DNA from: Candidatus Bathyarchaeota archaeon | Lineage (GTDB): Archaea; Thermoproteota; Bathyarchaeia; Bathyarchaeales; Bathycorpusculaceae | Assembly: GCA_963775685.1 (NCBI GenBank) | Contig: CAVZJV010000011.1 | Span: 27,546 to 91,545, forward strand | DNA length: 64,000 nucleotides | Direction: 5' to 3' | Shown: in pieces, positions 10,519-44,234 of the stretch | Layout: each line of letters begins with the position of its first letter | Numbering within the stretch: the first letter of the stretch is position 1 | The notes under the pieces: model-generated | What the model was told of the DNA's origin: nothing | What the model saw: the letters and a program-made list of their open reading frames with translations, nothing else | Databases searched by the model: none | Program-made: the position numbers and the translations under genes

Positions 10519-10992
10519 TTATTGGGTGAATTTTTTTCCAAGTTCTTCTGCCCAAGCTTCAACTTTAGCCAAATCGGTGTTATCTACCATGGTTTTTCTG
10601 AAGTATCTTATGCGTCCGCCGAAAGCTTCTGTGCTTACCGGATTAATTTTTGGGTATTTGGTTAATGTTTTTTCTACAAATTTGGTTTTTGCGTTCTCGT
10701 AGCTTCCAGGGGTTCCCGCCCAGGAGGAGGAAACAAAGAAAGCTACCTTCTTACCTGTTAAATCGTTCTCCAAAAACTTTAACACTTTACCGTAAACTTT
10801 TCCTCCCCTCACACCACCGCCAATTATAATGTTTTGGTACACTGATAGGTCAGGGTGCTTCTGCTTTTTGATGTCAACCAAATCGACTTCGAATCGAAAC
10901 TTTGAGCGTAGGGTTTCCGCTATTTTCATAGCAGCCTCCTTAGTAGCTCCGCCTTTACTGAAATACGCGATAAGCGTCTTTCCTGTGCTCAT
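10519..10992 (-). CDS. flavodoxin-domain protein (HemG-like)
   Basis: LIAYFSKGGATKEAA, IIIGGGV, KKVAFFV, AFGGRI. Confidence 0.8.
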   Translation of the reverse strand: MSTGKTLIAYFSKGGATKEAAMKIAETLRSKFRFEVDLVDIKKQKHPDLSVYQNIIIGGGVRGGKVYGKVLKFLENDLTGKKVAFFVSSSWAGTPGSYENAKTKFVEKTLTKYPKINPVSTEAFGGRIRYFRKTMVDNTDLAKVEAWAEELGKKFTQ

Positions 10993-10996
10993 CTTT

Positions 10997-11362
10997 TCAG
11001 GTGCTTCCCGAAGGCTCTTTCGAGGACGTTACCTTTCCGCCGCAGTTGTGACAAAAAACCGCGCCAGAAACATTCTTTGTCCCGCAGATAGAACATATGA
11101 CTGTTCCTTGGGGGTTGGAGGTGGTTTTTTGTTGAACGTTTTCGCTGACTTTCTTAAATGCTGCTTGAGTTTCTTTGGCCGCTATTGTGAATGCTTTTTC
11201 AAGTTCAAGTCCCACTTGGTAGAAGGCATCCCTTAATTCATCAGAGGGGTACATCGCTTTTGCAGTTTTGCCTTTTTGGGTTTTCGTTCCACATTTGAAA
11301 CAGAAATATGCGTTGTCATCTATTTTTGTGCCGCAGTTAGAGCAGTAAACCATTTTTTTCAC
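10997..11362 (-). CDS. double zinc-ribbon protein
   Basis: CSNCG..FCFKCG at N-terminus and CSICG..FCHNCG at C-terminus. Confidence 0.8.
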   Translation of the reverse strand: MKKMVYCSNCGTKIDDNAYFCFKCGTKTQKGKTAKAMYPSDELRDAFYQVGLELEKAFTIAAKETQAAFKKVSENVQQKTTSNPQGTVICSICGTKNVSGAVFCHNCGGKVTSSKEPSGST

Positions 11363-11454
11363 TAGTAAGTATGCATGTGTGCTGTGAATTTAAGCCTTTA
11401 CAAAAAATGAAGTTGAAGAAAAAACAAAAGAAAATTAATCGAAGACTAAAAAAG

Positions 11455-12816
11455 CTAATCTACAAGTTTTGCCCTTGCGTTCTCAATCAACTTGACCGTT
11501 TGCATGCGCCATGACTCAAACCCTTCAGGTGTTGTTGGATAAGTGTTGTAATGCGCACTAAGGCCTCTCATCATTGTAACCGTCAAGCGCAATCTGTTGA
11601 GGAATCCGACTCGGCGAAGACCTCGAAAGACTCGTTTAGCGGTTTCGGTGATGTTTAGGTGGAAGTCGTCGCCCATTCCTGCTTTGAGCACGTCGTCTTC
11701 GGTCATGAGTTTCTCGTTCATGCCGTAGTTTAGGTCTTCGTCGCTACAGGATAAAAGGAACATTTTGAAGATGTCTAAAGTGCCCTGTTTTTTGCCGTAA
11801 GTGTCGATGTATTTCTTGTTGTAGCCCCAGAGTGCTTCTTTGGTGGGTTCACCTTCGCTTAGGGCTTCAATGATTTGTCGTCCTGCAAAGTAGCCGCTTA
11901 GCATTGAGGGTCCGATGCCGCCACCGTGAATCGGGTTAACCAACGAGGCAGCGTCCCCAACTAACATTACGCCATTTGAAACCATGTTGTCTAGGGGTCT
12001 GCGGACTGGATCAAACCATGAGCCGGCAGTTAAGATTAAGGAGTCGTCAAAGATTGGTTTCTTGAAGGCGGTGCTGTAGAGTTGCTGTTTGGGGTTGGGG
12101 AAGTTTCCACGCATGCAGATGCCTAAGCCCACGTTGACTCGGGCGCCGCCTTTGGGGAAAATCCATATGTAACCGCCCGGTGACGCTTTTTGGTTAAGAT
12201 AGATCTCACAGAAGCGGGTGTTTTCGGTTTCCTGTTTGAGTTGGCGGATTTCTCGGTAGCATGCTTCAACATCTTGGTTTGCTATGTCGCGATCTATGCC
12301 CAACTCGGCTGGTAACTGTTTACGTACCATGCCCAAATAGCCGCTGGCGTCAACCACAACCTTGCTGCGAATCTCAGAGACTTTGCCTGTCTTCATGTTC
12401 TTTGCATTGATTCCTACAACTGCATTTTTCTCAAGTATGGGTGAACGGAAGTTCATGTTATCCTGAAGGAAGGCGCCTTTGTCGGTGGCTTTTTTGAGGA
12501 GCCACTGCCCAAATAGGCGTCTATTAAGCAAGTAGCCAATGAAGTCTTTGTCGGCGATTGTGAAAACTGTGTTTTCGTCTGGGCTGTAGATTTTGATGCC
12601 ATCGATTTTGGCTTCTAACTCGCCACCTGTAGGCTTCTCAAGGTTCAAGAATTTTAAGTGGTGCTCTCCTAGGGCGTCGCCGCAGATTTTTTCTCCGATT
12701 TCTTCACGCTGCTTCTTTTCAATTAAGCATACTTTTAAGCCTTTTTCAGCGATAGTTTTTGCTGCAAGGCAGCCTGCTGTTCCTGCGCCAACAACTATGA
12801 CATCATATTTATCCAC
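11455..12816 (-). CDS. geranylgeranyl reductase family (digeranylgeranylglycerophospholipid reductase)
   Basis: GAGTAG FAD motif, ICGDA, PGGYIWIFP, VGDAA..NPIHGGGI. Confidence 0.9.
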   Translation of the reverse strand: MDKYDVIVVGAGTAGCLAAKTIAEKGLKVCLIEKKQREEIGEKICGDALGEHHLKFLNLEKPTGGELEAKIDGIKIYSPDENTVFTIADKDFIGYLLNRRLFGQWLLKKATDKGAFLQDNMNFRSPILEKNAVVGINAKNMKTGKVSEIRSKVVVDASGYLGMVRKQLPAELGIDRDIANQDVEACYREIRQLKQETENTRFCEIYLNQKASPGGYIWIFPKGGARVNVGLGICMRGNFPNPKQQLYSTAFKKPIFDDSLILTAGSWFDPVRRPLDNMVSNGVMLVGDAASLVNPIHGGGIGPSMLSGYFAGRQIIEALSEGEPTKEALWGYNKKYIDTYGKKQGTLDIFKMFLLSCSDEDLNYGMNEKLMTEDDVLKAGMGDDFHLNITETAKRVFRGLRRVGFLNRLRLTVTMMRGLSAHYNTYPTTPEGFESWRMQTVKLIENARAKLVD

Positions 12817-12915
12817 GAGTATACGTCCTCAAGATTACTTTACTTTGTATACTTTGTTGTATATGTAAAGCTTAATAAATGGTGAAGTGAGCAAAACCAC
12901 ACCGAGTGTAATCCC

Positions 12916-13344
12916 ATGAGTGCTCCCTTAACATTGAGCGCAGAATTCCGCAAAATCGTTGAAGCCCGAATGAACCAGGTTCTTCGCGGCATAGAAGAAA
13001 CCTTTAACGCAATCATTGAGAAACAGAAAATCACTCCAACCGAGCTCAAAAACGAATTGGAGAGCCTTCAGGAGAGCTTCAACCTGCTTTTCCAGAAATG
13101 GAGCCTAGAAATTCTCTACACACTTATGCTTAAAGACACTATAGGCTTTGGAGGTATAAGAAAAATCTTAGGTGTTAACTCACGAACCCTCTCGGACAAA
13201 CTCAAAATGCTTCAAACACACGGTTACGCAAACCGAAAAGTCACTAATGGGCCACCATTAAGAGTGGAGTATTCGTTGACTTCTAAGGGAAAAAACACCG
13301 TGCTGTTGGCTTTGCCGCTACTATACTATTCAAGTTCAGCCTAA
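12916..13344 (+). CDS. HxlR-family winged-helix regulator
   Basis: KWSLEIL, NSRTLSDKLK, PPLRVEYSLTSKG. Confidence 0.85.
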   Translation: MSAPLTLSAEFRKIVEARMNQVLRGIEETFNAIIEKQKITPTELKNELESLQESFNLLFQKWSLEILYTLMLKDTIGFGGIRKILGVNSRTLSDKLKMLQTHGYANRKVTNGPPLRVEYSLTSKGKNTVLLALPLLYYSSSA

Positions 13345-13854
13345 TTATGGTTTTAGCACGTTTTTTCTAAACGTTTGCGGAAGACTCGTTGATTCTTTCA
13401 CAGTTTCAAAAACCATGCAGGTCAGAGTCTTATCTAAACCTTTAATCAGCCTCAACTTATCCACCACAAACTTGCCGACAGCGTCTACGTTTTCTGCACG
13501 CAACTTCACGAGTAAGTCCCAATCACCTGTGATTATATGGACTTCCTGCACTTCTGGGAAGCGGGCGATTTCTTCGGCAACTTGACGTTGGGAGACTGGG
13601 GGGTCGTCTTCGTTTTTCGCTCTGTAGGAGACAGCTGCTAGGATGAAGGCGGCGGTGCTAAGGTTGAGTTTTTCTGCTGAGAGGATGGCTCGGTATTGTT
13701 TTATTATTCCCATTTCTTCCATGCGTTTAGTTTTGGCGAAGACTGTTGTAATTGGGGTATTGATCTTTTTGGCGATTTGGTTAGCGGTAAGTTTGCTGTT
13801 TTCTTGGATAAGAGTTAGTATAGCGAGGTCTTTCTCGTCCAGTTTGATGCTCAT
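13345..13854 (-). CDS. Lrp/AsnC-family regulator
   Basis: LDEKDLAILTLIQEN HTH; PEVQEVHIITGDWDLLVK RAM domain. Confidence 0.92.
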   Translation of the reverse strand: MSIKLDEKDLAILTLIQENSKLTANQIAKKINTPITTVFAKTKRMEEMGIIKQYRAILSAEKLNLSTAAFILAAVSYRAKNEDDPPVSQRQVAEEIARFPEVQEVHIITGDWDLLVKLRAENVDAVGKFVVDKLRLIKGLDKTLTCMVFETVKESTSLPQTFRKNVLKP

Positions 13855-13939
13855 ATGTAAATATTGCAGGTTTCAGGTATAAAAGCTTGTATTAATTGTA
13901 AATTATCTATATTTTGTTATAAAAAATTTATTACCTGCC

Positions 13940-14944
13940 ATGCGCAGTGTACACAAAAACAAACTCACAGTGATTAAATTGCTAAAACAAGAAACAATAG
14001 AAATCCCAAAGCCGTTAGACCAGCTAACGGAAAAAGAAATAGAAAGAAAAGCCTGCATAGGCAAAGTTATGACTTACACACTCAAAAGCCTTTCAAACAC
14101 TTTTGTAAACAAAGGTTTCCAATGGCTTCTACCCGTGGCACTTAGCCAAAGCACTGACCCACTCTGGCCAGACCCAGGCGCATCCATAGAAAAACGCATC
14201 GAAGTCGACATCTACGGTAAGCCTGTCCGGACCACAGCCAGCATGATTATCCACAAACTCGTCGCCGCCTCAACTGCCTATCCCAAACTGTTTATCCTTT
14301 CACCCAATATACGTATCGAAAAAGCTGAACGCGCAAAAACTGGCAAGCACATATATGAGTTCACCCAACTAGACTTTGAAGCCAGAGATGCGTCCTCAAA
14401 AGAAATTTTCGCCTTGGTTGAAGAAGCCATGAACACCCTAGTCAAGGACTTGAAGCGTGAAATGAAAAGCGAATTAACTGCTCTATGTCGCTGCGACACC
14501 CTCAAAGCGCCAAAAGCACCATTCAAAATTTACGACCGCGTAGAATTAGAAGCTAAATATGGTGGAGACTGGGAAATAGGCATATCAAACGAAATAACTG
14601 AGCCAGTTTGGGTAACAAACATTCCCAGAGAATTCTATGACTTTGAAGACTTCAAGACGGGCAGATGGGACAACTACGATCTGTTCCTGCCGCAATTTGG
14701 AGAGGTCCTCTCAGGCGCCAAACGCGAATATGAATACAAAAAAATCCTGAGCAAGATTGAGCGCGACCAAGTTAAGAAAGAAAACTACACACTCGTACTC
14801 AAAATGGCAAAAGAAGGCAGACTAAAACCCACCGCAGGCGGAGGCATAGGTATGGAACGTTTAGTCGGCTGGCTTGCAGGCGTCAAACATATCGGCGAAT
14901 GTCAACCGTTCCCACGTGTTCCCGGAACAGTAAACGAGCTCTAA
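13940..14944 (+). CDS. asnA: archaeal-type asparagine synthetase A (AspRS/AsnRS catalytic-domain paralogue)
   Basis: TDPLWPDP, SMIIHK, SPNIRIE, HIYEFTQLDFE, EVLSG, GGGIGMERL, PFPRVPG; no anticodon-binding domain; start may be 13970 or 13979. Confidence 0.88.
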   Translation: MRSVHKNKLTVIKLLKQETIEIPKPLDQLTEKEIERKACIGKVMTYTLKSLSNTFVNKGFQWLLPVALSQSTDPLWPDPGASIEKRIEVDIYGKPVRTTASMIIHKLVAASTAYPKLFILSPNIRIEKAERAKTGKHIYEFTQLDFEARDASSKEIFALVEEAMNTLVKDLKREMKSELTALCRCDTLKAPKAPFKIYDRVELEAKYGGDWEIGISNEITEPVWVTNIPREFYDFEDFKTGRWDNYDLFLPQFGEVLSGAKREYEYKKILSKIERDQVKKENYTLVLKMAKEGRLKPTAGGGIGMERLVGWLAGVKHIGECQPFPRVPGTVNEL

Positions 14945-36687: not shown

Positions 36688-37857
36688 GTGAAAAAAATGA
36701 AGAAAGCTACCACCCTACTGACAGTAGTACTCATAATTGTGATTGTAACAGCGATAGGTGCTTACGCTTACCTGCAAAGTACACATCAGACCTCATATTC
36801 ACCTACAACATTAACTGTTGCAACTACCACTAGCCTTCATGACACAGGACTCGAAGATAACGGAACGGGTAACATAAAAGATGCTTTCCAATCTAAATAC
36901 CCATGGATAACGGTTAATTTTGTTGCATTGGGAACAGGTGCCGCAATAGCACAAGCTCAGAGAGGCGGTGCAGACATGATACTGGTTCATTCGCCTTCCC
37001 AAGAGAAGAATTTCTTGAGTGGCGGCTACGGAGTTGACCGCAAAATTGTTGCCTTTAACTTCTTTATCATCGTTGGACCTACAAATGACCCTGCCCATAT
37101 CAGCGGAATGAGTAATGTATCTGAAGCTTTATTGGCCGTATACAATGCTGCTCAAACCGACAGCAACATTAAGTGGGTCTCAAGAAACGACGGTTCAGGT
37201 ACAAACACTGCAGAAATAAATCTTTGGAAGGCCGCCGGTTACACCTATGCTGACCTTACCCAACAGACTTCATGGTTCAAATCAACAGGTCAAGGCATGG
37301 GCGCCAGTTTGCTAGTGGCTGACCAATTGGACGGGTACATCTTAGCAGATACAGGAACATACCTAGCATATTATAACGCAGGCAACATCCAATTAACAAC
37401 AACGATTCAAGCCCAACGATCACTGCTAAACGTGTACAGCGCCATAATTGACAACCCCCAAAACGCCAACTTGACCAGCATAAATTTTGATGCCGCCATG
37501 ACGTTCGTAAACTATCTAGTTTCCAATGAGGGTCAACAGTTATTTGCAAACTATGGAGTATCGACTTATGGACAGCAACTTTTCAGCCCATTTGTGCCCT
37601 TAGCTACCGGAACTGCGGCCAATGGTACGCTACTGACTTGGGTTCAAAACTACGCGTACATCAATGGAACCGAATGTCCAGCTGCATACCGATACAACGC
37701 AGAAGACCTATATTTGCCATCATATGATACACTGGCAAGCAGTAACCTTGGGGCTTCAATCAGCGTTCCCAACTATTACTCAACAGGCGGACAACAAGTT
37801 GCGCTCGCTGCTCCATCTATACCCACTCTAAGTAACGTTAAATTAAACAAGGTATAG
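36688..37857 (+). CDS. tupA: tungstate ABC transporter substrate-binding protein
   Basis: N-terminal anchor, ATTTSLHDTGL, GTGAAI, LVHSP, SRNDGSGT, GQGMG. Confidence 0.9.
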   Translation: MKKMKKATTLLTVVLIIVIVTAIGAYAYLQSTHQTSYSPTTLTVATTTSLHDTGLEDNGTGNIKDAFQSKYPWITVNFVALGTGAAIAQAQRGGADMILVHSPSQEKNFLSGGYGVDRKIVAFNFFIIVGPTNDPAHISGMSNVSEALLAVYNAAQTDSNIKWVSRNDGSGTNTAEINLWKAAGYTYADLTQQTSWFKSTGQGMGASLLVADQLDGYILADTGTYLAYYNAGNIQLTTTIQAQRSLLNVYSAIIDNPQNANLTSINFDAAMTFVNYLVSNEGQQLFANYGVSTYGQQLFSPFVPLATGTAANGTLLTWVQNYAYINGTECPAAYRYNAEDLYLPSYDTLASSNLGASISVPNYYSTGGQQVALAAPSIPTLSNVKLNKV

Positions 37858-37907
37858 GTCAAAGAAAAAGCTCAAATAAACTTCCCTTTATTTTCTTTGT
37901 GATATGC

Positions 37908-38664
37908 ATGGCCGATATTATCGTCCAGTCTTTACAGCAAGCATTCAACTTAATTATAAGCGGCGACCCTGAATTTTACGCCACCGTTTACCGAACAATC
38001 TACGTCTCAGGCGTTGGAACACTATTGGCATGTACTTGGAGTATTCCTATTGCGGTAGTTTTAGGGTTGTATTCTTTTAGGGGGAAATGGTTCATCAAAG
38101 GCCTCTTTAATGCGCTGATAGGTATTCCTACGGTTGCTCTAGGTTTAATCTTGTTCTTACTTTTGTCGCGACAGGGTGAATTCGGCTTTCTCCACATGCT
38201 TTACACTCTTAACGGGATAGCAATTGGCCAAGCTTTGCTCGTGACGCCGATAATAGTAAGTTTCACCGCTAAAGCATTGGGAGCTGCAGATACTCAGCTC
38301 AGAGATTTAGCTAGAACTCTTGGCGCATCAGATTTCAGGACTAATCTAACTTTTGATTCGCGAGATCGTTTGGTCTATGGTGCTTTCTGTTACGGTTGCC
38401 TTCAATAGGGGCTTTGGAGAACTCGGTGTAGCCACAATCGTAGGTGGTAGTTTGATTGGCGAAACAAGGGTACTAACCACTTCCATTGCCCTTCAAATAA
38501 ACTTTGGGCGATTCGACCTTGCCATGGCTTACGCAATTGTCCTTATGACAATCGTAATTGCACTAGCTTTAACCATAAGCCTAATCGAGCGTGTAAGAAA
38601 CGAGGACATATCATTGAGTGAACTGGTTTTTTGGAGAGGTTTAAAGGGGAAGTTAGAAACTTGA
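37908..38664 (+). pseudogene. tupB: tungstate ABC permease, single frameshift near 38351-38354 (T run)
   Basis: LIGIPTVALGL..LLSRQG in one ORF, FNRGFGELG..VGG..TRVLTTSIAL in the next frame. Confidence 0.85.
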
Positions 38665-39377
38665 GCGTTAACTTGCAAATATTAGACCTGCAAAAGATCT
38701 ACCAATCCACAAAAGCCCTAAAATCAGTATCCTTAAACCTTCAAGGCAACAAAATAATAGTCCTCCTCGGAGTAAACGGTGCAGGCAAAACCACCCTCAT
38801 GCGTATCTTGGCTGGTTTAGAGAAATCTGACTGTGGAAAAATCCTCTTCAACAACCAAAATATAAACGCTAAAGCTTTGCGCCAGGTATCAACCTTGGTT
38901 TTTCAGAAGACAGCAATGTTCAGCCTCAACGTTTATGGCAACTTGGCGTTTGGGCTTAAAATCAGAAATGTTTCTGAAGAACAAATTCCCAAAAGGGTAA
39001 GCGAGGCGTTGCAAGCTGTTAGGCTTTCTGGGTTTGAGAAAAGACGCGCAAAGAAACTTTCAGGGGGCGAACAACAGAGAATTGCTTTGGATAGGGCGTT
39101 TTTGCTTGAGTCTCAAGTTTTGCTTTTGGATGAGCCCACTGCGAATTTAGATCCTAACAGTGCAATAATTATAGAGAAGGCAATTGTAAACCACAAAAAC
39201 AGCCAACGAATTATAATAATGGCGACCCACAATCTTAACCAAGCAAGACGCATGGCTGATGAAATTGTCCACATCCATAATCGAGAAGTGGTAGAAGCTG
39301 CTAAAGCATTGGATTTCTTTGAAAATCCCAAAAGCGATATAACCCGCAAATTCATCAATGGCGAATTAGATTTCTAA
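38661..39377 (+). CDS. tupC: tungstate ABC transporter ATPase
   Basis: GVNGAGKT, LSGGEQQR, LLLDEPTANLDP. Confidence 0.9.
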   Translation: MSVNLQILDLQKIYQSTKALKSVSLNLQGNKIIVLLGVNGAGKTTLMRILAGLEKSDCGKILFNNQNINAKALRQVSTLVFQKTAMFSLNVYGNLAFGLKIRNVSEEQIPKRVSEALQAVRLSGFEKRRAKKLSGGEQQRIALDRAFLLESQVLLLDEPTANLDPNSAIIIEKAIVNHKNSQRIIIMATHNLNQARRMADEIVHIHNREVVEAAKALDFFENPKSDITRKFINGELDF

Positions 39378-39650: not shown

Positions 39651-40217
39651 ATGATTAGAATGCTTAGCAATAGAAAACATACGCTCTCATGCAAAGCCTG
39701 GATTGAAATCAAAGGAAAACCCATAATCGGCAAAGGCGGCGCAGAAATACTTGAAGCAATCGACAAGGAAAACTCGCTTTCTAAAGCAGCAGAAACGCTG
39801 GGGATGTCTTATCGTTACGTTTGGAATTACGTACAGGAAATCCAAACCGTGATGGAAGAGCAAATTGTTGACACATATAAGGGTGGCAAATCCGGCGGCG
39901 GCGGCGCAAAACTGACGGATTTGGGCAGAAGTTTGCTGGCAGAGTATAAGCAAGTTGAGACTTATTTGAGTAAGGCTTTATCTGTTCAAGGTAATTTGGA
40001 GGTGAATGGTTTGAAGTTAAGTGCACGCAATCAATTTAAGGGAAATGTTGTTGCCGTTGAAAAAGGTGTCATAACAGGCAAGGTTAAAGTTGAAATCAAG
40101 GTGCCGGCGACCATTACGGCTGTAATTACAAAAGAAGCCATTGAAGAATTAGACATTAAAGTAGGAGATGAAGTGTCTGCGATCGTGAAATCAACAGAGA
40201 TCATGATTGCAAAATAA
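39651..40217 (+). CDS. modE: ModE-family regulator (wHTH plus one TOBE/Mop domain)
   Basis: SLSKAAETLGMSYRYVW, GGKSGGGAKLT; C-terminal KLSARNQFKG...ITAVIT...AIVKST. Confidence 0.88.
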   Translation: MIRMLSNRKHTLSCKAWIEIKGKPIIGKGGAEILEAIDKENSLSKAAETLGMSYRYVWNYVQEIQTVMEEQIVDTYKGGKSGGGGAKLTDLGRSLLAEYKQVETYLSKALSVQGNLEVNGLKLSARNQFKGNVVAVEKGVITGKVKVEIKVPATITAVITKEAIEELDIKVGDEVSAIVKSTEIMIAK

Positions 40218-40227
40218 TTTTTTTATT

Positions 40228-40779
40228 TTATTCGACAACGTACCTGTAGGTTACATGTTCGCCTGCAGTTGTGCTTTTGCGGGTAATTTTCAGTACGTCG
40301 CCTGGTTTTGCACCTATCGCTTTGACGGCAGGGTCGCCTGATTTGATTTGTGGCATCTGGTAGGGTTTAACTTTGAATTGTGCAAGTAGTTGATTCTTTT
40401 CTTTTTCGGTTAAGATTTCGTGGAATGGGACAAGTGCATGTTCAAAGATGTCAAAGACTGGGAACGATTTGGGTAGTAACTCTACTTTTTTCTTCTTTGC
40501 ACCTAGTTTGACGGCGTGGGTGTAGCGTCCTTCGGTAACTACTATGGCGCGATCGAGTTCTTTTTCTTTCATCACTTTGTAGAGCGTATTCATGGCGGCG
40601 ATACCGACGGTGGCTTCGCCAAGGATGCACCAAACGATGGCTTTTTCTTTGTCTTGTGGAATGTCGATGATGTAGGCGTAGGCGCCTTCAAATTTTTCTT
40701 TTTCGATAAGCTTGTATTTTCTTAGTTTTATGAGAACTTCCGCTTTCCGTTCTTCGATTGTTTCCATTTTGGTGCTCAA
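40228..40779 (-). CDS. rpo5: RNA polymerase subunit Rpo5 (H) with about 100-aa N-terminal extra domain
   Basis: C-terminal [39 protein letters not shown]. Confidence 0.92.
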
Positions 40780-41025
40780 ACCACAAACCTCAAGGTAGAA
40801 TTACTCGCAACCTAAAACAAACATTTACCCTTAAACTTTATGGTGTACAAAACGTAAGACCGTGAACAACTTGGTTTTTATCTGGGCGAACTCTAAGTTA
40901 TTATGTATTTAGATGGGTTGATTCAAAGATTTTTGAGCTTCGTTTTTCTCTTTCGGATCGTTTTGACGGCGCTTTGTGTTATCATATTTTTTCTTTTTTA
41001 AGCAAAGTTTTTGCTAGGTTTGATT

Positions 41026-41736: not shown

Positions 41737-41955
41737 AGAACTATTCTTGTTTGGGTTCCTTAGAAGTTGTTATTGATTTGTGTCTACAACAAGGGCTTCT
41801 GTGGGAAACAAGGGTTAGTGTAATTTCTGATTTGTGTCTTTTCTCAAATTGTTTTCTGCCAGTGTGAAGGATGATAAAAAATTTATAAAATCCCTTAAAT
41901 GTTCGGGGCAATACCTATTTATGAAAAAGTGCACTATATACTTATTGTGATAGTT

Positions 41956-43572
41956 ATGAGTCAAACCCCAATGTTTTGTTTTCAATGTGAACAAACAGCC
42001 AAGGGCACAGGCTGCACCGTTGCTGGTGTCTGCGGAAAGACAGCCGATGTCGCAAACCTCCAAGACCTTTTAGTTTACAAGCTAAGGGAACTCAGCCAAC
42101 TGGTAATCGAAGCCCAAAAAGCAGGCATAAGAGACGAAAAAATCAGCGTTTTTACCGCTGAGTCACTTTTTGTAACGTTGACTAACGTGAACTTTGATCC
42201 CGAAGCTATCTCCTCCTACATAAGAAAAGCAGCCCAGATGCATGACCAACTGCACAAGCAGCTAAAAGTTAAAGTTGAATATTTGCCCTTAGAGCCAACC
42301 CTTGAAGGGCTAATTGCACAGGGAAAACAACACGGTATAAACTCCGACCCAACTATGGACTCTGACCTGCATGGGTTACAGTGGCTACTAACCTTCGGAC
42401 TAAAGGGAGTCGCCGCTTATGCATATCATGCTTACCTGTTGGGTAAAAAAGATTCCAAAGTCTTCGAGTTCATCCATGAAGGCTTAGTTGCGCCCTTCGA
42501 CAAGTCGCTTGGCGTAAACGAGTTTGTCGGTTTAGTTTTCAAATGCGGCGAAATTAACATCCGTGCAATGGAGCTGCTTGACGCAGGAAACACTGAAACA
42601 TACGGTCATCCTGTTCCAACCAAAGTACCCTTAGGACACAAAAAGGGCAAAGCCATCGTGGTTTCAGGACACGACCTCATTGATTTAGAACAAATACTAA
42701 AGCAAACTCAAGGCACAGGAATCACCATCTATACCCATGGCGAAATGCTGCCCACACACGGCTACCCAGGGCTCAAAAAATATCCTAACTTCTACGGACA
42801 CTTTGGAACCGCATGGCAAAATCAACAAAAAGAATTCGCGCAATTCCCAGGAGCCATCTTAATGACTACTAACTGCATCCAGCGACCCGTAGAAAGCTAT
42901 AAGGGTAACATTTTCACTTCTGGACCTGTTGGTTTCCCAGGCGTACCGCACATCGAAGGTCAAGACTTCTCACCTGTAATCCAGAAAGCCCTGTCGCTTC
43001 CAGGCTTCCCCGAAGATGTCGAAGGCAAAACAGTCTTGGTTGGTTTCGGCAGAAACGCAGTTCTGAGCGTTGCAGGCAAAGTCATCGATTCAGTCAAGAG
43101 CGGAAATATTAAACGCTTCATACTTGTGGGTGGATGTGACGGTGCAAAACCCGGACGCAGCTATTATACTGAATTCGTGGAAAAGGCACCCAAAGACACA
43201 ATCATTTTAACGTTGGCATGCGGCAAATTCCGCTTCTTCGACAAGGAACTTGGAACAATCGATGATATCCCACGATTACTGGATATCGGACAATGTAACG
43301 ATGCTTACTCAGCAGTCAAAATTGCCTTGGCGCTTGCGGACGCGTTTAAAGTTACCGTCAACGAGTTGCCTCTGTCACTGGTTCTGTCATGGTATGAACA
43401 GAAAGCCGTCGCCATCTTACTGTCGCTACTCTACTTGGGCATAAAAAACATACGAATCGGCCCAAGCCTACCTGCGTTCATAACACCAAACATACTAAAT
43501 GTGCTAGTTGAAAAATTTAACATAATGCCAATAAAGACACCCGACGAAGACCTCAAGGCAATAATGGAATAG
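41956..43572 (+). CDS. hcp: hybrid cluster protein (hydroxylamine/NO reductase)
   Basis: MFCFQCEQTAKGTGCTVAGVCGK, SGHD, YTHGEMLP, GGCDG, TLACGK, GQCND, SWYEQKA. Confidence 0.96.
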   Translation: MSQTPMFCFQCEQTAKGTGCTVAGVCGKTADVANLQDLLVYKLRELSQLVIEAQKAGIRDEKISVFTAESLFVTLTNVNFDPEAISSYIRKAAQMHDQLHKQLKVKVEYLPLEPTLEGLIAQGKQHGINSDPTMDSDLHGLQWLLTFGLKGVAAYAYHAYLLGKKDSKVFEFIHEGLVAPFDKSLGVNEFVGLVFKCGEINIRAMELLDAGNTETYGHPVPTKVPLGHKKGKAIVVSGHDLIDLEQILKQTQGTGITIYTHGEMLPTHGYPGLKKYPNFYGHFGTAWQNQQKEFAQFPGAILMTTNCIQRPVESYKGNIFTSGPVGFPGVPHIEGQDFSPVIQKALSLPGFPEDVEGKTVLVGFGRNAVLSVAGKVIDSVKSGNIKRFILVGGCDGAKPGRSYYTEFVEKAPKDTIILTLACGKFRFFDKELGTIDDIPRLLDIGQCNDAYSAVKIALALADAFKVTVNELPLSLVLSWYEQKAVAILLSLLYLGIKNIRIGPSLPAFITPNILNVLVEKFNIMPIKTPDEDLKAIME

Positions 43573-43652: not shown

Positions 43653-44234
43653 TTAACTCGGTGGGCTGAGTTTTTCGAGAAGCCACGCCATGTTTTTGCC
43701 CAAGTCATCCATTGTTTTTAGTCCTTCCTCGTCTTTTTCCACATCGCCCTTGCCTAGTCCGATGCCTATGTTCCAGTAGGATGAGCCAGGAATAATCAAT
43801 TGGCTTATTAGGAAAAAGTGGTTTATAGCGTCAAAGGTGGGTATGCCGCCTGCTCTACGCACAGCTACCACAGCCGCACCGACCTTTCGCTTAAACAAGT
43901 CTCCGTTTGCCCTGCCCACAAATCCCGCTCGGTCGATAAGCGCTTTCATATCCGAGGTCATCATGGAAAAGTACGTTGGGGAACCAAGAATTATGCCGTC
44001 GGCTGCAATCATCTTTTCAATGTAGAGGTTGACGTTGTCGTTTACGATTTTACATTGTTTGTTTTGAATTTTTAGGCAAACTCCACAAGCGGTGCAGCCG
44101 TGGATTTGTTCACCTGATAGCTGGATTAGTTCGGTTTCGATGCCTTCAGCCTCAAGGACCCTTAAGACTCGGCGGATTAATATGGCTGTGTTTCCATCTT
44201 TTCGTGCGCTTCCATTAAAAGCAACAACCTTCAA
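43653..44234 (-). CDS. iron-sulfur flavoprotein (Isf-like flavodoxin family)
   Basis: GSARKDGNT, CTACGVC....C, GSPTYF, RRAGG. Confidence 0.9.
   Translation of the reverse strand: MKVVAFNGSARKDGNTAILIRRVLRVLEAEGIETELIQLSGEQIHGCTACGVCLKIQNKQCKIVNDNVNLYIEKMIAADGIILGSPTYFSMMTSDMKALIDRAGFVGRANGDLFKRKVGAAVVAVRRAGGIPTFDAINHFFLISQLIIPGSSYWNIGIGLGKGDVEKDEEGLKTMDDLGKNMAWLLEKLSPPS

Follow-up and report, generated by a model that had tools for sequence, protein, structure and literature searches.

In archaeal and eukaryotic RNA polymerases of solved structure, the assembly domain of Rpo5 or Rpb5 docks on the largest subunit. Canonical archaeal Rpo5, also called RpoH, is a protein of about 75-90 residues (8cro_H, 4qiw_H, 7ok0_H) from which an N-terminal domain is absent, whereas in eukaryotic Rpb5 (RPABC1; 1dzf, 5iy6_E, 7eu0_E, 9mu7_E) the assembly domain is preceded by a jaw domain of the PD-(D/E)XK fold that has lost its active site. 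Here we describe the rpo5 gene of a Candidatus Bathyarchaeota archaeon, which lies in a stretch of 64,000 nucleotides (the window; GenBank assembly GCA_963775685.1, contig CAVZJV010000011.1, positions 27,546 to 91,545) and encodes a long form of the subunit with a PD-(D/E)XK-type domain and an assembly domain in the same order as in Rpb5, the active site of the former again being lost. Rpb5 is shared by Pol I, II and III and by Pol IV and V of plants, whereas the archaeal long form serves one polymerase. We consider it likely, at a probability of roughly 0.7, that the gene encodes a single two-domain Rpo5 whose dead Mrr-type N-terminal domain would serve as a lower-jaw module, and that the two domains were joined in one archaeal fusion ancestral to Rpb5.

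RpoH is presented without an N-terminal module in the available parts of PMC1802627 and PMC3906176, where that module is called eukaryotic and is set on an archaeal-type core. The available part of PMC3424549 classes Rpb5_N as a PD-(D/E)XK fold, tabulates its Pfam family PF03871 for Eukaryota only and reports 'no HGT observed' (HGT, horizontal gene transfer). Bathyarchaeota and Helarchaeota Rpo5 have been modelled together with Rpo1 and Rpo6 (PMC13257274), with no comment on the N-terminal domain in the accessible text, and a long Rpo5 goes unmentioned in the accessible parts of two archaeal polymerase subunit surveys (PMC7289017 and again PMC13257274). Full-text literature searches, which included PMC13607799, PMC13556214, PMC13545438 and 10.1101/2023.07.11.548585, yielded no description of a long archaeal Rpo5 in the portions of these sources that are open, although subscription journals or other supplements may hold one, and the terms Rpb5, RpoH, PF03871 and PF01191 were not found in the supplements of PMC10307638. 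The first-pass annotation of this DNA, made from the sequence alone, had allowed that the architecture might already be documented; no prior report of it turned up in the literature searched, as far as that literature is open. The architecture is already contained in the precomputed Pfam annotation of public databases, open to whoever looks there, and what the searches suggest is a variant of the known subunit Rpo5 that is apparently undescribed as such in the literature covered.

Domains of the long Rpo5

The gene and the parts of its product are the following.

40228..40779, minus strand: long-form rpo5/rpoH gene, 183 codons plus stop, TTG start (open reading frame list and translation)
40471..40779, minus strand: N-terminal domain, residues 1-103, predicted dead Mrr-type PD-(D/E)XK fold and putative counterpart of the Rpb5 jaw core
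40456..40470, minus strand: inter-domain linker KSFPV, residues 104-108, of the same length as in eukaryotic Rpb5
40237..40455, minus strand: assembly domain RNA_pol_Rpb5_C with HxLVPxH, residues 109-181 (Pfam)

The C-terminal part is a clear Rpo5 preceded by about 100 residues, as the first-pass annotation had described it. It matches Pfam RNA_pol_Rpb5_C (PF01191) over profile positions 1-73 of 73 (E 5.4e-30, 103.4 bits against a cut-off of 23.5) and the NCBIfam RpoH equivalog NF007129 at 105.1 bits, the cut-off being 83. Canonical archaeal chains match the C-terminal 75 residues over their full length at E 5e-24; identity in this domain to the Pyrococcus and Thermococcus Rpo5 chains is about 59-60%, and both they and the long form carry HxLVPxH and a YRYV end. 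According to the available part of PMC1802627, these two motifs contact Rpo1 in solved polymerases. Residues H110, V113, H116, Y174, R175 and Y176 (numbered by the first row of the alignment) are invariant in 30 of 30 sequences.

The domain in front matches Pfam NA-iREase1 (PF22722), an 'inactive restriction endonuclease' family, at residues 20-102 (28.0 bits, cut-off 27) and Mrr_cat (PF04471) at residues 38-102 (26.8 bits, cut-off 21). An AlphaFold2 model of the whole protein has a predicted local distance difference test score of 88.5; that of the N-terminal domain by itself reaches 94.7 and shows the topology alpha-beta-beta-beta-alpha-beta-alpha-beta. Fold and core motifs (G-Y, VG[IV], GI[IV].T, [FY]T..A and IEL[IL]) are held in common with Mrr_cat, but Mrr_cat enzymes have the catalytic D...D and Q-x-K and are joined to DNA-recognition or helicase partners, whereas in the N-terminal domain these residues are gone and the partner is a polymerase subunit. 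When the groups are aligned together, the columns of the Mrr consensus DgGiD ... QCK hold residues that are not conserved, and W-C-[IV], in Bathyarchaeia; the catalytic positions are variable in Asgard archaea and V-F-F in eukaryotes, and no polymerase-linked group retains them (on the PD-(D/E)XK catalytic motif, see PMC3424549). Because the catalytic Asp and the Gln/Glu-x-Lys are lost, the domain is probably a structural module and no enzyme; judged by its residues and its model, it is conserved, well folded and catalytically dead. R16, G55, E96 and L97 are invariant in the alignment of N-terminal domains, and the Arg of an RxY motif in helix 1 is invariant in 30/30. Basic residues characterise the helix that follows the YT motif (consensus AAK..AKK), which, speculatively, would suit a DNA-facing surface.

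The likeness to eukaryotic Rpb5 extends across both domains. When the window protein by itself was searched against the PDB with phmmer, the alignment of archaeal Rpo5 chains was confined to residues 108-183, whereas eukaryotic Rpb5 chains align from residue 43-54 through the C-terminus with one 4-residue gap; with a full-length profile the Rpb5 alignment begins earlier, at profile position 28-37. The first-pass annotation had lined up the N-terminal domain with human RPB5 by eye and had claimed a similar spacing to HxLVPxH, and both claims were borne out. The same register comes from phmmer, the profile, MAFFT and the structural alignment: in phmmer and the profile, a stretch of the N-terminal domain pairs with EEPK[IV]GIKTIK...MQEENI.RA[IL][IV]VVQ.GMT of Drosophila and human Rpb5, and in MAFFT the first helix pairs with the eukaryotic LCHDRGY helix, as it does in the structural alignment (model residues 1-99 on chain residues 8-131) and in a colinear HMMER stretch whose -3.2 bits are not significant alone. 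In the joint alignment the RxY of helix 1 stands opposite the eukaryotic DRGY, in which the yeast Rpb5 change R26E is lethal (PMC1802627, available part), and colinearity extends to VG[IV], the strand GI[IV]v, the [YM]T..A motif and the final [IL]E strand. In the window protein, the His of HxLVPxH (H114) comes 14 residues after E100, the conserved Glu in the final strand of the N-terminal domain, a spacing found in 30/30 Bathyarchaeia, 13/13 eukaryote-type and 4/4 P0268-family sequences (a compact family described below) and in 15 of 21 from Asgard archaea, the other six having 13.

A profile of 30 N-terminal domains, trimmed ahead of any Rpb5_C residue (profile A2), had eukaryotic Rpb5 as all eight of its best matches among PDB sequences, seven of them below 0.005 (Drosophila 8e-5, Arabidopsis 1.3e-3, five mammalian-type chains 3.7-4.5e-3), and nuclease matches were absent from these sequences up to E 10. 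With the whole model, Foldseek placed Rpb5 chains of Pol I-V and of African swine fever virus (ASFV) at ranks 1-34 (TMq 0.65-0.78, 140-209 columns) and archaeal Rpo5 after them with about 75 columns. The superposition on Rpb5 proposed in the first-pass annotation thus covers both domains, at TM 0.70-0.78; for the N-terminal domain model by itself, VIA laid 94 of 99 residues on human Rpb5 residues 8-131 (Z 9.8, root-mean-square deviation 2.7-2.9). On profile and model evidence, the N-terminal domain is judged to be a jaw-homologous PD-(D/E)XK domain set directly before the assembly domain.

The long Rpo5 is nevertheless not a 'full-length Rpb5' in the family sense. Of that earlier description the two-domain layout, the linker and the superposition hold, but Pfam Rpb5_N is unmatched, the eukaryotic insert is absent and the domain is nearer to Mrr_cat. 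The eukaryotic jaw has about 135 residues and the archaeal domain about 100, the latter being without a helical insert of about 25-30 residues after helix 1. The Pro of eukaryotic MTPSAK is His or Gln in the Bathyarchaeia long form, while Asgard sequences mostly read TP[AN]A, and the archaeal domain, unlike the eukaryotic jaw, retains a clear Mrr_cat signature.

The window's genome (3.06 Mb, 14 contigs, 96.9% complete) holds a single PF01191 match and a single match to the N-domain profile, both in the gene at 40228..40779, and therefore the long protein is the genome's only Rpo5/RpoH, with no spare paralogue. Being the sole Rpb5_C gene also argues, indirectly, that its product would be part of the RNA polymerase. 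A short rpo5 before rpo2 was looked for and not found in the genome; upstream of rpoB there is nothing Rpb5-like, only an open reading frame of 105 residues without a family and a DNA methylase. The alternative offered by the first-pass annotation, sole subunit or swappable paralogue, is thereby settled for the former, and the swappable paralogue is rejected since a second Rpb5_C or N-domain match was not found in the 96.9% complete genome.

Occurrence in Bathyarchaeia and Asgard archaea

A tblastn search with residues 1-108 found the N-terminal domain in 50 of 401 sampled genomes of the window's phylum (Thermoproteota). Strong matches to profile A2 occur in all 46 other sampled genomes of the window's order (Bathyarchaeales) and in two further families of its class; 11 genomes from six other families of the class gave no match to A2, and elsewhere in the phylum sample there were just weak, Mrr-like matches in frames of differing size. 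Every strong match is one uninterrupted frame of about 180-230 residues that can be aligned to the entire window protein, its N-terminal domain being between 84% and 27% identical to that of the window. Among public proteins there are 1222 relatives, named 'subunit H' by their sources, of which the best 120 are 93-99% identical; PF03871 is in none of those 120 in precomputed Pfam annotation.

The first-pass annotation had presented the architecture as a feature of a TACK archaeon, which it is, but it is not special to that archaeon, being widespread in Asgard archaea. Rpb5_C was found in 237 of 251 sampled Asgard genomes; the frames that contain the 150 matches listed have 81-125 residues in 38 cases, 142 in one case and 171-315 in the remaining 111. 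The Bathyarchaeial N-domain profile matches 157 of the 251 genomes, and in each of about 30 compared by eye the N-domain match lies 15-25 nucleotides upstream of Rpb5_C in the same frame (in G442:C4, for example, at 787431-787706 and 787722-787940). Named carriers of the long form include a Helarchaeota protein (P0243, Candidatus Helarchaeota Hel_GB_B locus) and the cluster of P0167, which contains a Candidatus Heimdallarchaeota protein. Within flanks of 1-1.5 kb only, and at 30 Asgard loci, rpoB adjoins the short-form rpo5 at 4/4 Asgard loci, the short form being directly upstream of it, and stands beside the long form at 0/26 Asgard and 0/48 Bathyarchaeia loci. Asgard genomes with the long form mostly have one Rpb5_C match, and those with two often have tandem long copies.

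Such tandem genes, about 650 nucleotides apart and each of two domains, were seen in at least a dozen sampled Asgard genomes (G610:C111 1732-2897, G488:C32 8016-9172, G553:C186 2626-3796 and G631:C3 92088-93260 are examples). A second long-form copy is also present in some genomes of the window's order, namely G053 (L036, L045), G125 (L038 and C225:168-467) and G013 (L051), the second copy in G013 being split over two frames. In one protein from the same order (L031 1159-1800, minus strand, G264) the two domains are separated by some 33 additional residues that include a zinc-ribbon-like CxxC...CxxC motif, and shorter charged insertions occupy the inter-domain site of L025, L026, L049 and L050.

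Related N-terminal domains also occur apart from Rpb5_C. A stand-alone paralogue family of about 180-280 residues combines an N-terminal domain much like that of the long Rpo5, with a dead Mrr-like site, and a Cys-rich C-terminal domain, C..KCG..P...(E/D)C ... C.[IV]R..S.NA.FH...GW..L...DL, to which no Pfam family corresponds (L086 1491-2042, plus strand, in G155 of the window's family; L089 656-1294, minus strand; P0166, P0180, P0183, P0170, P0211). Clusters of the protein-cluster Atlas that resemble it come from Bathyarchaeota and Methanobacteriota, and in the window's own genome a search with the N-domain profile did not find it. This family may mark the donor of the Rpo5 N-terminal domain. 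In P0137 (220 residues), P0126, P0141, P0203 and P0174 a domain of the long-Rpo5 type is followed by a Smr domain, unrelated sequence, or a Cpn60 or MS-channel (mechanosensitive channel) fragment; these may be frameshifts, chimeric contigs or real fusions. Lastly, P0268 and P0284-P0286 (184-207 residues; NCBI, JGI and Logan), which may come from a protist or a giant virus, form a compact Rpb5_N plus Rpb5_C family without the eukaryotic insert and with 'KGTYTSSATKG', which resembles the archaeal YT motif; by hhalign this family falls between archaeal and animal N-terminal domains.

A probable single archaeal fusion and its alternatives

The reading favoured at the outset has a structural and a historical side. 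The C-terminal 75 residues would be an ordinary assembly domain docking on Rpo1, as elsewhere in the family. Since the length of the tether and the predicted orientation equal those of Rpb5, the N-terminal domain would lie at the lower jaw by the downstream DNA, as a module flanking the archaeal polymerase's downstream-DNA channel, and would offer added surface for contacts with DNA or factors. As to its history, a dead Mrr-like domain would have joined Rpo5 once, in archaea; the long-form gene would have left the rpoH-rpoB-rpoA operon and would have persisted in one entire order of Bathyarchaeia and in most sampled Asgard archaea; and eukaryotic Rpb5 would be a much-diverged descendant that gained the helical insert. 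Asgard archaea are the archaeal phylum in which current views place the origin of eukaryotes. That the long form and eukaryotic Rpb5 share a single origin seems to us probable, because domain order and junction spacing are the same, the alignment across the junction is free of gaps, the long form is present in Asgard archaea, and the eukaryotic jaw profile matches the Asgard domain over twice the columns that it does Mrr. For the fuller proposal, that the Rpb5 jaw was an archaeal invention from a dead Mrr nuclease, passed via Asgard archaea to the first eukaryotes and then became the lower jaw of Pol I, II and III, we see a slightly better than even chance.

The profile comparisons on which much of this turns are listed here (hhalign, N-terminal domains; the Mrr profile is a 40-sequence alignment).

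Bathyarchaeia versus Asgard: 99.8%, score 148, 101 columns
Bathyarchaeia versus Mrr: 99.4%, score 118, 92 columns
Asgard versus Mrr: 99.2%, score 104, 94 columns
Asgard versus eukaryote: 96.8%, score 59.8, 88 columns
Bathyarchaeia versus eukaryote: 94.0%, score 45.5, 49 columns
Eukaryote versus Mrr: 93.8%, score 44.6, 41 columns

Several results weigh against a single fusion that already made a jaw. The window protein does not match Pfam RNA_pol_Rpb5_N (PF03871) up to E 10, the model being one of 89 positions that extends from helix 1 through the eukaryotic insert to the first strands, as seen in the P0268 match. Structure does not discriminate, the VIA Z-scores of EndoMS/NucS (10.7) and the Mrr-like AF1548 (10.5) being tied with the 9.8 of Rpb5; MspJI and AspBHI rank after the former two. 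When A2 was searched against 1.84 billion representative proteins (407 matches at E <= 1e-3), Mrr nucleases appeared from E 6e-12 and the earliest Rpb5_N carriers only at about 1e-5; by Pfam, the best 150 of the 407 include about 47 genuine Mrr_cat nucleases (79-173 bits) and 34 proteins with Rpb5_C, mostly long forms of 172-196 residues, two of those 34 also having Rpb5_N. The archaeal domains score Mrr_cat (118 for Bathyarchaeia, 104 for Asgard) far above the eukaryotic jaw (45.5 and 59.8), so that the outcome which the first-pass annotation had set against its own claim, a domain no closer to Rpb5_N than to Mrr, was in part observed. A tree of the N-terminal domains (76 rows, 106 columns, in a quick and a careful version) sets apart two clans, one of the Mrr sample (support 100/99) and one of eukaryote-type sequences (100/97), but the backbone among the archaeal groups is unsupported in both versions. 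The Mrr sequences had been selected for their resemblance to A2, and the eukaryote-type set consists of 10 animal sequences and 3 others. The eukaryotic clan attaches to a single long Asgard branch at 40/7, which calls for a long-branch warning, and joining eukaryotes with Mrr against all archaeal domains costs no likelihood (approximately unbiased (AU) test, p 0.528). The phylogeny called up by the first-pass annotation therefore separates the Mrr and eukaryote-type sequences and permits no conclusion on origin. The position at the jaw and any contact with DNA are, for their part, carried over from solved polymerases of other organisms, and AlphaFold2 may have reproduced the domain orientation of Rpb5 from its training.

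Many of these points would be expected if the likeness were convergent, an Mrr-like domain having joined Rpo5 in archaea and a separate PD-(D/E)XK domain having joined Rpb5 in the eukaryotic stem. The preference for Mrr_cat over the eukaryotic jaw, the unmatched Rpb5_N, the AU test and the tied Z-scores all speak for such a course, as do the potential donors, stand-alone Mrr-like paralogues, in the same archaeal groups. Nearness to Mrr is, however, no proof of an independent fusion, since Rpb5_N too, though diverged, belongs to the superfamily of Mrr, and the hhalign scores place the archaeal domains between Mrr and a strongly diverged eukaryotic jaw. Among the three profiles the best partner of the eukaryotic jaw is the Asgard domain, which it fits better than Mrr and over about twice the columns (88 against 41), and among PDB sequences the N-domain profile recovers Rpb5 only. 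Two separate fusions would also have had to arrive at the same domain order, the same 14-residue spacing and a colinear junction without gaps, and the long form occurs in Asgard archaea, Heimdallarchaeota included; we therefore regard convergence as unlikely, though it deserves the most serious hearing among the alternatives.

A transfer of the long form into archaea from eukaryotes or giant viruses (Nucleocytoviricota) appears very improbable. The nearest clusters in the Atlas beyond Bathyarchaeota are labelled Nucleocytoviricota, with Rpb5_C together with Mrr_cat or Rpb5_N, and the insert-less P0268 family exists, both of which could be read as traces of such a source. The Rpb5 homologues of nucleocytoplasmic large DNA viruses (ASFV 8q3b_E, vaccinia 6rfl_E) likewise have two domains in about 185-205 residues and take Foldseek ranks 12, 17 and 49; their identity in structural alignments is 14-19%, and that of ASFV aligns by sequence over the C-terminal domain only (residues 109-182). 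Yet the archaeal N-terminal domains retain far more of the Mrr signature than eukaryotic or P0268-type ones do, which fits a state nearer the ancestor, their C-terminal domain is 59-60% identical to Thermococcales chains while whole-match identity to eukaryotic chains is 24-34%, and the long form is fixed in a whole order and in most sampled Asgard genomes. We give even less credence to the idea that the N-terminal domain still acts as a nuclease, or is a passenger on Rpo5 that belongs to a defence system or mobile element, or that the reading frame is an artefact of assembly or gene calling. A score above the gathering threshold for Mrr_cat, a restriction endonuclease family, lends it some colour, but the catalytic Asp and Q/E-x-K are replaced family-wide and the better Pfam match is the inactive NA-iREase1; moreover, the frame is uninterrupted in every sampled genome of the order, 1222 relatives are on public record, and the gene is its genome's only Rpo5.

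Setting of the gene and consequences for the jaw

Two putative signals, both read from the sequence, precede the gene.

40787..40791, minus strand: Shine-Dalgarno-like GAGGT, 7 nucleotides 5' of the TTG start
40830..40839, minus strand: candidate TATA-like A/T element AAAGTTTAAG, about 50-60 nucleotides 5' of the start

The frame runs for 190 codons from stop to stop. We favour the TTG at 40779 as the start over the ATG four codons on at 40767 because of the spacing to GAGGT and the starts of relatives: close relatives begin at the equivalent site with TTG or GTG (an 'MS...' N-terminus), and distant ones begin M-S. Many near-identical relatives are annotated as proteins of 198 residues from an upstream ATG, a start which an in-window stop rules out here.

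The gene lies outside the rpo operon and converges on modE, just as the first-pass annotation had it: the ModE-like gene, with HTH_1 and TOBE domains, is at 39651-40217 on the plus strand, and the genome's rpoB (1121 residues) and rpoA (1277 residues), that is rpo2 and rpo1, are on another contig, where their operon runs on into genes for L30e and a NusA-like KH protein. There rpoA is unsplit, not divided into A' and A'', with Rpb1 domains 1-5 in one frame (L085 6943-10776, minus strand), as is rpoB (10778-14143, minus strand). Upstream of rpo5 there is a gap of 363 nucleotides and then an F420_oxidored-type gene. Ahead of the ModE-like gene, a putative ABC-transporter permease at 37899-38664 (plus strand) appears as two overlapping open reading frames of 169 and 103 residues, flanked by a substrate-binding protein (36688-37857) and an ATPase (38631-39377); its split could be a frameshift, a sequencing error or real. 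Just upstream of the F420_oxidored gene, the open reading frame at 41899-43572 (plus strand, 557 residues) resembles a hybrid-cluster protein, and on the same side of that gene, at 43653-44234 (minus strand), there is an open reading frame of the flavodoxin-like, NADPH-dependent FMN reductase type; the two would fit an anaerobe.

That a long Rpo5 occurs in Bathyarchaeia, and also in roughly six out of every ten Asgard genomes sampled, shifts another 'eukaryotic' polymerase feature back to archaea, and bears on how eukaryotic polymerases arose. It also concerns annotation, the long-form genes being named merely 'subunit H'. If the single archaeal fusion is true, the polymerases of Bathyarchaeia and Asgard archaea would already possess a eukaryote-like lower jaw, that jaw could be traced to a specific source, a restriction nuclease that had been disarmed, and the donor family might be represented by the stand-alone Mrr-like/Cys-rich paralogues. 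The role of the Rpb5 jaw would then become testable in a system with one polymerase, and the order in which the lower jaw evolved would be open to examination.

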